Notes: generated by a model from the sequence alone, not told the origin. 64,000 nt of DNA from a virus (IMGVR_UViG_3300031555_002904), one strand, 5' to 3'. Shown: positions 24,541 through 63,899, counted from the stretch's first letter. Numbers and translations are program-made.

Positions 24541-24969
24541 ATGCAATCTTTTACAAAAGAACCCAATTACGGCTATGTTAATGGAAGTGCCGTATATATT
24601 ATTGAATATAATGGTTATCGTTTTGTCGGTGAAGCAACTTGTCATCCCGACGATTTAGATTTTGAAAGTGAACGAGTTGGTCTAACATTGGCTGAATCTC
24701 GTGCCAATATTAAAGTATTGCGTCATATCCGCGATTGTGAGATTAAACCTCAGTTAAAAATTTTAAAGCACCTATATGATAACATGAGGTCCAGTACCCA
24801 TCATAATGCTTATTCTTACGAAGCGAAAATGATGCGTAGTTAGATTCGCGTGATTGAAAAAGAATTAGCTGCAATTAACAACGATATAGCTGACGAACAA
24901 AAGTTTATTAAAGATTATATTGAAGGAAAGGACAAACTATATAAAAGACTTCGGGCCAAAAGCCAGTAA
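24541..24969 (+). CDS. hypothetical protein with in-frame TAG at 24841 (read as a sense codon)
   Basis: The frame continues 42 codons past the TAG to TAA 24967-24969, adding a charged helical tail. Confidence 0.5.
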
Positions 24970-25012
24970 TTCATAATCCCTAATTCTTATATTTGGTAGG
25001 GAGGAGATATAC

Positions 25013-25267
25013 ATGGAGTTATTATATTTTATCCTTGGTATTATTTTTGTAACTTATGTTATTCCTTTGCTGGATGGACTTTCAGCTTGGTTTTTAACTT
25101 GGGTTGAAGCAAAAAAAGCCAAACAAAGTGAGATTATAAACCAAACCAATATTAAAATGCGTTAGGCAGCCGCCTCTGCGGAAGAGGACCCACCTCGTAG
25201 ACCAATCGGTTTCCGCATGCCTGACCCAGAAGATTACGACGAAGAGGAGAATGAAGATGAAGTTTAA
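25013..25267 (+). CDS. small membrane protein with in-frame TAG at 25163
   Basis: RBS GGGAGGAG; transmembrane helix, then TAG, then an acidic tail ending at TAA 25265-25267. Confidence 0.45.
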
Positions 25268-26501
25268 ATGCTATGACACTTGTAGTCTTTTAGAACAAGC
25301 TGGGCATTTATTCACATCTGACGAGTACGCTTTAGTAATTACTTCAATTACTTTAGAAGAATTGGAGCATATTAAAACCGCTTCCAACAAAGACGCCGAT
25401 GTGAAGTTTGCGGCCCGCAAAGTTCTAACTGACCTCGACGAACACTATGGCTCATTTGAAATTGTTCTTTACAATGACCTATATGGCGAGAAAATGCTTA
25501 AAGATGGTATCAGCCTAACTAACGACGCCAAAATCATCGCTTGCGCTCGTCATTTTGCAGCCACACATCCAGAAGATGAAGTTATCTTTGTAACTAATGA
25601 CTTAATCTGCCGTCATATCGCAAGTATGTATTTCACAACTGAAAAGGTTGTTGAGGAGGAATATAATTATGATGGTTATAAAGAAGTATTCTTGGATGAA
25701 GATGGAATGACTGAATTTTATTCCAATCCAGAAGCCAATCTATATGACCTACATATTAATGAATACTTGTTGGTATATAATACTGATGGCGAATGCGTGG
25801 ACCGACTATGCTGGACAGGTAATGGATATAGACATTTGAGTTATAACAGTTTTAATTCTCGCTGGTTCGGAGACGTTAAACCCATGAAGGGAGACGTTTA
25901 CCAGTCACTTGCGGCCGATAGCTTGATGAATAACAAGATTACCTTAGTTAAAGGACCTGCGGGTTCCGGTAAAACATTCTTGAGTCTGGCCTTCTTGATG
26001 CACAAACTGGAGAGAAATAAGATTGATAGAATCATTGTGTTCTGTAATACTGTTGCCACTAAGAATTCTGCTAAATTAGGATATTACCCTGGCACACGAG
26101 ATGAAAAGCTTTTAGACTCTCAAATCGGTAATCTATTAATTAGTAAATTTGGTGGAAGACTTGCTGTTGAACAAATGATTCAGCAAGAAAAATTAGTTTT
26201 ATTACCTTTGTCTGACATTCGTGGATACGATACATCTGGTATGTGCGCTGGTATTTATATTTCAGAAGCACAAAATATGGATGTGGAGTTAATGAAATTG
26301 ACTTTACAGCGTATTGGCGAAGATAGTATCTGTATTATTGATGGTGACTGTAAGACATAGGTTGACGATATTCACTTCTCTGGAAGTAATAACGGTATGC
26401 GTAGAGCCTCTCAAGTATATCGAGGCGAAGATGTGTATGGCGAGATTACTTTGAAAAATATTCATCGTTCTCGTATTGCACAAATTGCTGAAAAAATGTA
26501 A
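25251..26501 (+). CDS. phoH: PIN-domain plus PhoH-like ATPase (YlaK-like) with in-frame TAG at 26358
   Basis: Walker A VKGPAGSGKT. The TAG falls in the PhoH motif IIDGDCKT-[TAG]-VDD, which corresponds to the conserved GD-x-TQ-xD with Q. The frame continues to TAA 26499-26501. Confidence 0.8.
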
Positions 26502-26516
26502 CTTAATATATGTTGC

Positions 26517-26546
26517 GCCCTGGCGAATTTTTCGCCAGGGTTTTTT
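26517..26546 (+). terminator. rho-independent terminator
   Basis: ccctggcgaa/ttt/ttcgccaggg then TTTTTT. Confidence 0.7.
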
Positions 26547-26576
26547 CATATGAAAATTTGGAAAGGAGAGAAATAA

Positions 26577-61653: not shown

Positions 61654-61658
61654 TAAAA

Positions 61659-62198
61659 ATGGCTATTTTTGAAAAAGTTTCTAAATATATAGATGTGGAC
61701 ATCGCTATGCCGGTCAGAAAGACTGCACAGTCCGCAGGATATGATATGGTTGCCGCAGAGGATTATATAATTCCTTCTGTATGGCAAATGGTTGCAGAAG
61801 CTAAAGAATTATGGCCTGTAGGCGATGATGAGTTCGTAACTATGGACCTTATGTCTAAATTTACAAAAGAGACTGGTTTCAAGCCAACTCTTGTTTCTAC
61901 TGGAATGAAATGCAAACTTGACCCGACTACTTGGTTACAGTTGAGTGTTCGTAGCTCTTCTCCTCTAAAATATTGGTTAATGATGGGTAATGGTATCGGC
62001 GTTATTGATGCTGACTATTATAACAATCCCGATAATGAAGGAGAAATTTTCTTCCAGATTTATAATCTATCTCCATTTAATATTCAGATTAAAAAGGGAG
62101 AGGCCATTGGTCAGGCTATTATTCTTCCCTATGGCGTTACTGAAGATGACGTCGCAGGTGGAGAGCGCACTGGCGGTTTTGGCTCCACATCTAAGTAA
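61659..62198 (+). CDS. dut: dUTP diphosphatase
   Basis: dUTPase motifs SAGYDM, RSS, GVIDADY, GERTGGFGST. Confidence 0.8.
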   Translation: MAIFEKVSKYIDVDIAMPVRKTAQSAGYDMVAAEDYIIPSVWQMVAEAKELWPVGDDEFVTMDLMSKFTKETGFKPTLVSTGMKCKLDPTTWLQLSVRSSSPLKYWLMMGNGIGVIDADYYNNPDNEGEIFFQIYNLSPFNIQIKKGEAIGQAIILPYGVTEDDVAGGERTGGFGSTSK

Positions 62199-62683
62199 TG
62201 CGTCTTTTAGCATTAGACTAGGCAAGCCGAACAAGCGGCTGGGCCATATTTGAAGATGGTAAGCTTCTAAAATATGGTAAGTTTACTGCTGACCATTCTG
62301 ATGTTGGAGATAGACTTCACTTTATTCGGAGTAAAGTAAATCAACTCATTAATGAATATGATATTGATGAAGTTGTTTTTGAAGATATTTAGCTTCAAGG
62401 CAATGTTGCAAACAATGTTCAAACTTTTAAAGCATTAGCAGAAGTCTTTGGTGTTTTATATGAATTATTTGTAACATTAAAGATGCCTCGAACCGCAGTT
62501 CTTTCAACCGTTTGGAAATCTACTCTTGGTATTAAGGGTAAAGACCGTCCAGCCCAGAAGAAAGCCGCATAGGCTTGGGTTGAAAAAACTTATGGTGTAA
62601 AACCTACTCAAGATGAGTGTGATGCTATTTGTATTGGTGCTCACTATGTAAATAATAAAGTCGAAGTATTCGATTGGTCTTAA
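62198..62683 (+). CDS. ruvC: RuvC-family Holliday junction resolvase with 3 in-frame TAGs (62219, 62390, 62570)
   Basis: MRLLALD-[TAG]-ASRTSGWAIF matches RuvC ILGIDPG...GYAV; ...EVVFEDI-[TAG]-LQGNV...; C-terminal DECDAICIGAHY catalytic region. Confidence 0.65.
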
Positions 62684-62750
62684 CTAGATAATCCCTCTTT
62701 CACTTCTTTTATTATCCAATAGAGAAGTTGAAAGGGGGAAAACTTTTATT

Positions 62751-63221
62751 ATGGAAGCTCTTTTAGCAGAGTGGGGAACAGAAATTTTGTTCGGTCTAAT
62801 TAGTGCTATTGTAATGGGTTGGGCAAAATGGCATGGTGATAAATTAAAGAAAGAAAAACTCCAAGCCGAAGAAAATGCTCGTATTATTGCAGAACAAAAG
62901 CTTGATGAAAGAATTGGTACTCACATTGAAGTTGAATTAGAACCAATTTATCAAGAATTAGAAGATTTAAGAAAGTATTGCCGCGACAATGAGAACTTAG
63001 AGAAATCTCATATGAACTTAATTGTTGCTTCTTACCGTTTCCGTTTAATCCAATTGTGCAAAGGATTTTTACGCCAAGAATACATTACTGAATCCCAGAT
63101 GGAACAATTAATGGAATTCTATAAATTATATAAAGGCTTAGGTGGAAATGGTCAAGCTGAAACTTATTATAATAAGGCAATTGCTTTACCTTTAAAGACT
63201 GACGATGAGGTTCCTGTCTAA
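62751..63221 (+). CDS. hypothetical protein
   Basis: RBS AAAGGGGGAAAA; 156 aa. Confidence 0.45.
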   Translation: MEALLAEWGTEILFGLISAIVMGWAKWHGDKLKKEKLQAEENARIIAEQKLDERIGTHIEVELEPIYQELEDLRKYCRDNENLEKSHMNLIVASYRFRLIQLCKGFLRQEYITESQMEQLMEFYKLYKGLGGNGQAETYYNKAIALPLKTDDEVPV

Positions 63222-63299
63222 ACCATAATTTGGTGAAGTAATTTTATATTTTTACTTCACCAAATTTTTTATTAAAAAAGAGATAAAGGAGAAAAGATA

Positions 63300-63899
63300 A
63301 TGGGATGGAGTACTCATAGTGATTGGAGTTTTTCTTATTAGGGCATAGATGCTACTTATAGTAGAAATTTACTCAAATATAAAAATACTGGTTCTACACC
63401 TCAACTAATAACTGCATGCAGAATAGGTCTTGCTTCAGGTAATGGAACATACAATTAGGGAGATACTGTTACTGGATATGGATATGCATATGATGTTTAT
63501 GTAACTGTTACTGATTCTAACGGAACATCGCATACGTCCAATACAATTACTGTAAGCAATAAAACTAGCGGAGGAAACTATTATAATACGGAACAAAAAA
63601 CTTTTACATTTGGAGGAGTATATGTAGCCGCTGGGTCAACAGTAACTTTTAGATTTCATTTTGTTCGTAAATCAAATCCTACTATTGTTATTATCAGAAA
63701 CCGAGGAGATAGCTCTACTTATGGAGGTACAGTGATTAATGGTGGAGGATTAGTTCGCATTAATATTGATGGAACTGCCAATGGATGGAAGAGTGCAATA
63801 CCATATGTCAATGTTGATGGAACTGCTAATGGATGGAAAGTTGCTATTCCATATATTAACAAAGATGGTACATCTACTGGGTGGGCTATTTGCACATAA
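63300..63899 (+). CDS. tail-fibre or structural-like protein with in-frame TAGs at 63339 and 63456
   Basis: RBS AAAGGAGAAAAG; 200 codons. Threefold repeat DGTANGWKSAIPYVN / DGTANGWKVAIPYIN / DGTSTGWAIC. Gly/Thr/Asn-rich. Confidence 0.5.

Follow-up and report, generated by a model that had tools for sequence, protein, structure and literature searches.

In Escherichia coli, the suppressor supE is a tRNA-Gln(CUA) that inserts glutamine at UAG in competition with release factor 1 (RF1). Gut phages that reassign TAG to glutamine (genetic code 15), including the large Jade, Sapphire and Agate clades, were described by Borges et al. (10.1101/2021.08.26.457843), who reported phage-encoded suppressor tRNAs, early genes kept in the standard code, variable recoding of the replication genes and, as one of the genes recoded most heavily, that of an intron homing endonuclease. 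In crAss-like phages, code 15 has been validated at the protein level (Peters et al., PMC9523058). A further example is the human-gut phage phAss-1 (~135 kb) of the proposed Phassvirus group (Babkin et al. 2023, PMC10607447; GenBank OQ749652), in which 28% of the open reading frames (ORFs) carry TAG as glutamine, TerL, the tape measure and the holin among them; it encodes two or three tRNA-Sup(CTA), and its predicted host belongs to the Clostridia (Eubacteriales). We analysed the reading of TAG in the viral stretch IMGVR_UViG_3300031555_002904 (the window, which is the whole 64 kb at 40.5% G+C; all positions are those of this stretch). Judged from its sequence, this phage very probably decodes UAG as glutamine by genetic code 15, the window being the likely early and DNA-metabolism part of a large phage. 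TAG is an internal codon only, at glutamine-type positions, and never a terminator.

Reading frames were counted with TAA and TGA as the sole stops. We observed 28 in-frame TAGs in 13 plus-strand genes (13/77, about one gene in six); TAA and TGA did not occur in frame in any gene. Among 78 tallied ORFs (one of which, 11-175, is spurious), TAA was the terminator of 55, TGA of 23 and TAG of none. If about 15% TAG ends is taken as the ordinary share, the chance of zero TAG ends among 77 genes is about 4e-6. When coding coverage was compared under both codes, as an earlier note on this DNA had suggested, ORFs of at least 100 amino acids covered 79% of the 24.5-64 kb region with TAG as a stop and 90% with TAG as sense. 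That note had listed in-frame TAGs in at least 11 genes, all named, about 27 in total. All 11 genes and the TAG positions were borne out, with domains spanning the TAGs in six of them; the count in those genes is 26. Two genes are added here, a small hypothetical gene (TAG 61268) and a metallophosphatase (TAG 22220). The claim that no well-supported gene ends in TAG agrees with the stop usage; TAG 22220, which had been set apart as the single exception, turned out to be a sense codon.

The decision on TAG 22220 came from the reading frame that follows it. The 42 codons past this TAG encode a Cys-rich tail (CxKCxY...C..YKRDxPDGGYYG) that is kept in frame in four relatives (loci L084, L116, L157 and L200). 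As the phosphatase domain of these relatives runs on into it in the same frame, TAG 22220 is a sense codon. In L116 and L200, a TAG occupies the same boundary position, in L084 it lies a few residues further on, and in L157 a sense codon is found there. This metallophosphatase is the sole TAG-bearing gene of the early region. The gene 5' of it (21093-21638) encodes an AAA_33 kinase, and the pair resembles a polynucleotide kinase-phosphatase.

All credible genes of the window are on the plus strand. Long minus-strand ORFs also open when TAG is read as sense, and these were rejected as shadows: they are of low complexity and unnatural composition, and the opposite plus-strand ORFs have Pfam matches. 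The ORFs 4645-4881, 5887-6111 and 11-175 were dropped, being out-of-frame overlaps with real genes. TAG 11962, upstream of the likely start at 12001, and TAG 60879, before the called start at 60891, were not counted.

We also considered that TAG might be an ordinary stop, the interrupted genes being pseudogenes, split genes or assembly errors. Standard-code callers do fragment these genes, as the calls of the Joint Genome Institute (JGI) on contig L202 illustrate, where a late gene of 1175 amino acids lies in 6 pieces and one of 808 amino acids in 3. However, the interruptions are TAG and nothing else, and the assemblies of the region from the European Nucleotide Archive (ENA) and JGI, which are independent, are 100% identical. 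The ENA gene calls run across the TAGs, giving a guanylate kinase (Gmk) of 189 amino acids, a RuvC of 161 amino acids, and the two late genes at full length. In six genes (PIN-PhoH, GIY-YIG, DHFR, RecJ, guanylate kinase and RuvC), the Pfam matches extend across TAGs, and the tblastn alignments of the relatives continue through the window TAGs in the same frame. A stop reading could further point to the lack of any tRNA inside the window itself; against this, suppressor tRNAs are encoded in the same genome, the same conserved glutamine columns hold TAG in dozens of relatives, and no gene ends in TAG. TAG as an ordinary stop is thus already contradicted, and we give it practically no weight.

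The identity of the inserted residue was read from the relatives. Window proteins in which TAG was written as X were aligned to 121 related loci, and for every X we recorded which codon faced it. At conserved columns, we observed CAA/CAG or TAG again. Glutamine and TAG accounted for 18 and 6 of a total of 24 at PhoH residue 370, for 42 and 20 of 67 at RecJ residue 75, and for 26 and 12 of 42 at GIY-YIG residue 258 (24 and 7 of 42 at residue 268). The three RuvC columns, with a total of 71 each, showed 43 and 16 at residue 8, 29 and 29 at residue 65, and 47 and 8 at residue 125. In L046, the closest complete relative (DnaE 92% identical), RuvC has glutamine at 3/3 of the window TAG positions. 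In the solved structure PDB 3b85, the residue aligned to the PhoH TAG is again Q, the one conserved in the motif GD..Q.D. The DHFR column is variable, with A, N or Q in the PDB homologues.

A reciprocal test, independent of the window's own TAGs, examined the window residue opposite the TAGs of the relatives. Within their alignments to window proteins, the relatives contained 1274 in-frame TAGs versus 8 TAA and 5 TGA. The window residue facing these TAGs was glutamine in 425 of about 1110 cases (38%), against a background of 3.2%, and the commonest residues after it were K and E. The assignment to glutamine follows from this, because Tyr, Leu, Ser and Trp were unenriched opposite TAG.

TAG could still be a sense codon for a different amino acid (pyrrolysine, Tyr, Leu, Ser, Lys, Glu or Trp). 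K and E are indeed next in frequency opposite TAG, but these commonly replace Q where a position varies, and at invariant columns (PhoH 370, RecJ 75) TAG alternates with Q only. Q is about 12-fold enriched, whereas none of Y, L, S and W exceeds its background frequency. Some relatives of the clade have a family of tRNA(CUA) genes of 85-95 nt with a long variable arm (class-II-like), which would recall Ser, Leu and Tyr tRNAs; however, their acceptor ends, too, are of the Gln type (U1, G73). Overall tRNA similarity leaves the isotype unfixed. ARAGORN labels tRNA(CUA) genes 'Pyl' by default, and pyrrolysine decoding of UAG was rejected, as there were no pyl genes or domains (pylS, pylBCD) among the surveyed gene domains of the window, and the conserved columns are Gln-like rather than Lys-like. 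A residue other than glutamine is therefore very unlikely.

The reading of TAG as glutamine calls for a tRNA. We observed no tRNA genes in the window, nor around DnaE or GyrA in any relative, and no Rfam family reached threshold within the window. The upstream flank was reached by walking protein clusters to a contig identical to it. This contig, L206, equals window 1-11165 without mismatch (11165 nt, 100%) and extends 8.5 kb upstream to an 86-nt tRNA-Cys. L368 (from ENA ERZ27248370, the same sample as the ENA contig L203) and L369 (JGI) are each 100% identical to L206 over a 3286-nt overlap. Samples containing this phage are ENA ERZ27248370 and ERZ27248306 and JGI 3300024303. L368 carries an array of 23 tRNA genes with a tandem pair of tRNA(CUA) genes, Sup1 and Sup2, after which follow Leu(UAA), Gly, Lys, Met, a gene for a 154-aa protein, and Cys. 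In the arrays of the relatives L222, L357, L359 and L361, suppressors occupy the corresponding position. Sup2, the second tRNA(CUA), has U1, G2-C71, G3-C70, G73 and an encoded CCA, and its acceptor stem differs from that of the phage's tRNA-Gln(UUG) and tRNA-Gln(CUG) only at positions 66 and 72. A 1:72 mismatch is found in both tRNA(CUA) genes. An exact-pattern scan with the 3' end of the odd tRNA-Cys gave 0 matches, viral and metagenome scans with the neighbouring 154-aa protein returned mostly short contigs, and a scan with a specific suppressor pattern found only one locus, already known.

Together, the relatives' codons, the reciprocal test, the PhoH structure and the phage's own tRNA(CUA) genes support the assignment of TAG to glutamine (code 15) that the earlier note had made. 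The outcomes which it had named as counting against recoding, namely TAGs in gaps or linkers and downstream parts out of frame, were absent in the genes that have homologues.

It was also possible that the host itself reads TAG as sense and that the phage just matches the code of its host. Code-matching of this kind is seen in phages of code-25 hosts, and code-matched phages have in-frame stops in about 90% of their genes, while partial recoding goes with standard-code hosts (Borges et al., 10.1101/2021.08.26.457843). The phage analysed here has TAG in only 13/77 genes and avoids it in the early region, and it encodes tRNA(CUA) itself. Clostridia-type bins of metagenome-assembled genomes (MAGs) contain five of the relatives. 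These bins, together with NrdD/NrdG and a lysin that has amidase and SH3 domains, point to an anaerobic clostridial bacterium of the gut as the probable host, and a host that is only probable leaves some room for code-matching. The candidate hosts, however, are Clostridia, and no reassignment of TAG to glutamine is known in that group. A host that already reads TAG as sense is accordingly even less likely than a different residue, and glutamine inserted by the phage's own suppressors is the reading that we retain. The genes and elements concerned are listed in Table 1.

Table 1. TAG-bearing genes, TAG-free long genes, promoter-like repeats and suppressor tRNA genes. Positions are those of the window unless a contig is named.
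Feature	Positions	Strand	In-frame TAG	Remarks
Metallophosphatase, Cys-rich C-terminal tail	21635-22348	+	22220	TAG at domain/tail boundary; Pfam Metallophos_2 residues 6-158
Hypothetical	24541-24969	+	24841	21 relatives align through: Q 9, E 6, T 3, TAG 1
Small membrane protein	25013-25267	+	25163	Frame unbroken; 10 relatives: Q 2, TAG 1, gap 4 (moderate support)
PIN-PhoH	25251-26501	+	26358	Pfam PhoH 217-411 spans TAG
GIY-YIG	38825-39817	+	nine, 38966 to 39626	GIY-YIG domain 242-322 spans two
DHFR	41000-41497	+	41195	Pfam DHFR_1 1-163 (1.6e-43) across TAG
Cys-rich, zinc-finger-like protein	43969-44628	+	44002 (codon 12)	34 relatives: Q 11, K 7, A 6
RecJ-like DHH exonuclease	48025-49770	+	48172, 48247	DHH domain 71-215 takes in TAG 75
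Hypothetical	50725-51219	+	50893	Unbroken frame; only two relatives align (N, E), weak support
Guanylate kinase (Gmk)	56960-57529	+	57017, 57083, 57137, 57392	Pfam Guanylate_kin 3-176 spans all four
Small hypothetical	61160-61414	+	61268	Unbroken frame; called 84 aa in L203, 36 aa (code 11) in L202
RuvC-like Holliday-junction resolvase	62198-62683	+	62219, 62390, 62570	Pfam RuvC 4-76 spans two
Repeat-containing fibre-like protein	63300-63899	+	63339, 63456	Unbroken frame; called 199 aa in L203
Lysin	26577	+	none	Pfam
gyrB	29961	+	none	Pfam
gyrA	33441	+	none	Pfam
ligA	36139	+	none	Pfam
thyA	40093	+	none	Pfam
dnaB	44632	+	none	Pfam
SF1 helicase	51535	+	none	Pfam
dnaE	52790	+	none	Pfam
nrdD	57615	+	none	Pfam
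Putative early-region promoter TTGATTTTTATAAAAAAATATGNTATAATATATAT	1034, 3620, 4843, 11143, 14569, 18736, 20625 (span 1034-20659)	+		Seven near-identical copies vs 0 expected
Tandem tRNA(CUA) pair	L368:9544-9618, 9619-9693 = window -11930 to -11781			~11.8 kb before window position 1

The use of TAG was graded along the genome. Per 1000 codons, we observed 0.14 TAGs in the early region, 2.2 in the replication/middle region and 3.8 in the sampled late genes; the last figure comes from the late genes of L203 (minus strand, just past the window), with 11 TAGs in 2905 codons. Within the window, 1 TAG in about 7200 codons (1-24.5 kb) compares with 27 in 12446 (24.5-64 kb; Fisher P = 6e-4). The spread within 24.5-64 kb was also far from random, an equally extreme one being reached in 0/20000 simulations. 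Genes of at least 500 amino acids, eight in number (lysin, gyrB, gyrA, ligA, dnaB, dnaE, nrdD and RecJ) hold 180/417 of the Gln sites but 2/27 of the TAGs, both in RecJ (P ~1e-4). TAG-free long genes interleave with TAG-bearing ones over 26577-59822, and the TAGs of the replication region are concentrated in nucleases, the core replisome having none. The GIY-YIG gene is the most heavily recoded in the window, with TAG at about half of its Gln positions. The late enrichment of TAG that code-15 phages show in structural and lysis genes does not extend to the large lysin at 26577, which is TAG-free. The relatives showed the same preference, their TAG totals being 10 for DnaE, 2 for GyrA, and 0 for both GyrB and LigA, versus 282 for RuvC, 207 for RecJ, 168 for GIY-YIG and 100 for NrdD.

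The early region is marked by the repeat TTGATTTTTATAAAAAAATATGNTATAATATATAT, a promoter-like element of 35 nt with a -35 box TTGATT, a 17-nt spacer and an extended -10 TGnTATAAT followed by ATATAT. It precedes the early operons, and looser copies occur at 8530 and 41494. No gene of the promoter-marked 1-21 kb contains a TAG. Going by the form of these elements, they are likely sigma-A-type promoters and would mark 1-21 kb as early genes of the host polymerase. Eight further copies occur in the tRNA array of L368, including one 180 nt upstream and one just downstream of the suppressor pair.

These features suggest how the recoding could operate. After infection, host RNA polymerase would transcribe the early region and the tRNA array from the strong sigma-A-type promoters, and host enzymes would charge the suppressor tRNAs with glutamine. 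The charged suppressors would then compete with RF1, and full-length TAG-bearing products would appear only after this competition sets in, so that TAG-rich synthesis may be delayed or attenuated. TAGs would in this way act as a gene-specific translational delay or attenuator, placed mostly on nucleases (PIN-PhoH, GIY-YIG, RecJ, RuvC) and on late structural genes, while the core replisome would remain legible in the standard code of the host. The start of DHFR lies 2 nt past the stop of the TAG-free thyA, the RuvC start overlaps the dut stop, and Gmk, downstream of dnaE in the dnaE operon, overlaps its preceding gene. Since TAG-bearing genes abut or overlap TAG-free operon neighbours, any gating must be translational and gene-specific.

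We tentatively suggest, as a possibility that we hold less probable than its opposite, that beyond a coarse early/late switch TAG is a gene-by-gene translational gate inside the polycistronic operons of this lineage. Nucleases (GIY-YIG with its 9 TAGs, RuvC, RecJ, PIN-PhoH) and a few nucleotide-metabolism enzymes may then be held until the suppressor accumulates. TAG 22220 may, in addition, be a conserved two-isoform switch, giving the catalytic domain alone early and the domain with the Cys-rich tail later. The sequence comparison suggests this, since several relatives that share only 42-50% protein identity have retained a TAG where the domain ends.

Several observations weigh against the decoding of UAG as glutamine or against its use in timing. 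Sup1 is without G2-C71 and G3-C70, and the whole-sequence similarity of the suppressors to other array tRNAs (0.60-0.65, with many isotypes) is uninformative on isotype. No gene for release factor 2 (RF2) or a synthetase was seen in the ~95 kb examined. Genes 50725, 61160 and 63300 have the unbroken frame as their sole evidence, with few or no homologues; none was found for the 61160-61414 product, and none among the related loci for that of 63300-63899. The host has been deduced from MAG binning and gene content only, and the late-gene sample is small (~2900 codons). Lastly, the suppressor genes adjoin early-type promoters. Because of this, the switch may operate from the outset, and the case for a strict 'late-only' timer is weakened; if it does start early, the TAG count of each gene would set a threshold rather than a strict late-only block.

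The tRNA arrays showed further peculiarities. The 86-nt tRNA-Cys(GCA) (L206:77-162, identical to L368:12987-13072, ~8.5 kb upstream of the window) has an extra arm unusual for tRNA-Cys, and in the anticodon stem it agrees with the consensus of the suppressors, CGGTCT...AAAACCG, which is present in Sup2. Long-arm tRNA(CUA) genes were found in the DnaE-clade relatives L258, L267, L282, L287 and L301 and in many other IMG/VR contigs, and L246 and L314 have a long and a short suppressor in tandem. L357:5505-5594 is a 90-nt tRNA-Gln(UUG) of similar build. The arrays of close relatives also hold a ROOL RNA (L359:1494-2098, 300 bits) and a skipping-rope RNA (L357:9180-9260, 70 bits). PDDEXK_5 nuclease genes are scattered among the array tRNAs (L359:6485-6892 and paralogues), and the copy adjoining the suppressor in L359 contains three TAGs.

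In L364 (9477-9628) and L365 (~4927-5078), which have ~83% nucleotide identity to the upstream flank of the window phage, a 77-nt insert (CGCAAGG...TTGCGACCA) splits the amber-suppressor tRNA gene within its anticodon loop. This insert folds as a cloverleaf itself and was seen in two assemblies that are independent of each other; the match to the Rfam tRNA model extends over it with an 80-nt insertion (37 bits). The orthologous suppressors in L357, L359, L222, L361 and L368 are without interruption, and no description of an insert of this kind was found in the papers searched. The split gene, taken with the phage's RNA ligase, kinase/phosphatase, Thg1 and RNase T, may be a lead to the maturation of the suppressor tRNA.

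The gene content of the two parts of the window differed. The products of 1-24.5 kb include a sigma-70 family factor, a Thg1-like enzyme, RNase T, an RNA ligase, a vault-shoulder-like protein, an NAD salvage set (NAMPT, NadE, NADAR, Sir2, nucleotidyltransferase), the kinase-phosphatase pair and an SPFH protein. Those of 24.5-64 kb are PIN-PhoH, the multidomain lysin, GyrB, GyrA, an NAD-dependent ligase, ThyA, DHFR, DnaB, RecJ, an SF1 helicase, DnaE, guanylate kinase, NrdD, NrdG, dUTPase and RuvC. The GIY-YIG protein has an N-terminal transmembrane helix and a long coiled coil, with the nuclease domain C-terminal, a layout that differs from the common one of free-standing homing endonucleases. 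Immediately beyond the window (from ~63900; L203:11195-20471), the genes change strand, and the minus-strand late genes there include those for the 1175-aa and 808-aa proteins, one with Laminin_G_3, which contain in-frame TAGs.

In the early region, 8588-11104 encodes an 838-aa protein with MVP_shoulder (Pfam 2e-23) and Vault_3, which is unusual for a phage and is kept in L357, L361 and L367. The cluster at 11197-19690 encodes an isochorismatase-family nicotinamidase, a phosphoribosyl pyrophosphate-type phosphoribosyltransferase, a YqeY-like protein, Sir2, NAMPT, NAD synthase, NADAR, an AAA_28 kinase and a nucleotidyltransferase; as a set, these could replenish NAD and so counter a host defence. 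For the YqeY-like protein (12844-13359), the Pfam score is borderline, and few of the related loci cover its gene. We take it to be of the GatB-tail type, which binds tRNA-Gln, and it could matter for charging the suppressor. A Thg1-like tRNA 5'-end repair enzyme (2324-3214), an RNase T-like exonuclease (4910-5818) and an RNA ligase (6427-7845), near a very large tRNA array, look like a tRNA repair/maturation toolkit.

When we searched GenBank phages by megablast with 38-58 kb, we obtained no nucleotide match, and DnaE was at most 39% identical to those of SPbeta-like phages and of the gut phage phAss-1. In IMG/VR, about 100 relatives were found, on contigs of 130-200 kb. Standard-code annotation fragments DHFR, RecJ, guanylate kinase, RuvC, PhoH and the large tail genes in this phage and in its relatives, which amount to at least 100 IMG/VR contigs and several contigs in bacterial MAGs; table 15 is the right gene-calling code for them. 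The phenomenon is already documented in gut phages, and the window phage is a confirmed, ordinary example of it. What it offers is an unusually clean map of the genes readable in the host code, namely the promoter-marked early block with polymerase, gyrase, ligase, helicase and reductase, with nucleases and late genes behind the suppressor. Given a host, the idea of the code switch as a timer would be testable gene by gene.

Hallmarks of code 15 that can be read from sequence are present here: TAGs within domains, alignment with glutamine, no TAG terminators, own tRNA(CUA) genes, and early avoidance with enrichment in the late genes sampled. As in the phages of Borges et al., TAG aligns with Gln, recoding is partial with early genes readable in the standard code, structural genes are recoded and replication genes variably so, and a nuclease gene is among the most recoded (theirs a homing endonuclease, here the GIY-YIG gene). 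The contigs of 130-160 kb are compatible with the Agate or Sapphire clade. Unlike in those phages, the TAG-free set is very sharp, consisting of a ~21-kb block with seven promoters and the core replisome; TAG-bearing genes lie within operons of TAG-free neighbours, the suppressors adjoin early-type promoters and not a lysis cassette, and the examined part has neither RF2 nor a synthetase gene. With phAss-1, the window phage shares a DnaE-type polymerase, NrdG and dUTPase, as well as TAG read as glutamine in part of the ORFs, CUA suppressor tRNA genes and a probable clostridial host, but the DnaE proteins are only 38% identical. The genes for TerL, the tape measure and the holin, recoded in phAss-1, lie beyond the window in the phage analysed here. 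Membership in Phassvirus, which is defined by ~80-86% nucleotide identity and synteny with phAss-1, was rejected on this identity and on the megablast result; since there is no nucleotide match to any phage record, the window phage belongs at least to a different genus from phAss-1. Compared with supE of E. coli, the suppressor of this phage is phage-encoded and duplicated, has the 1:72 mismatch and serves a genome without TAG terminators, and it has in common with supE the CUA anticodon and the Gln-type acceptor features.

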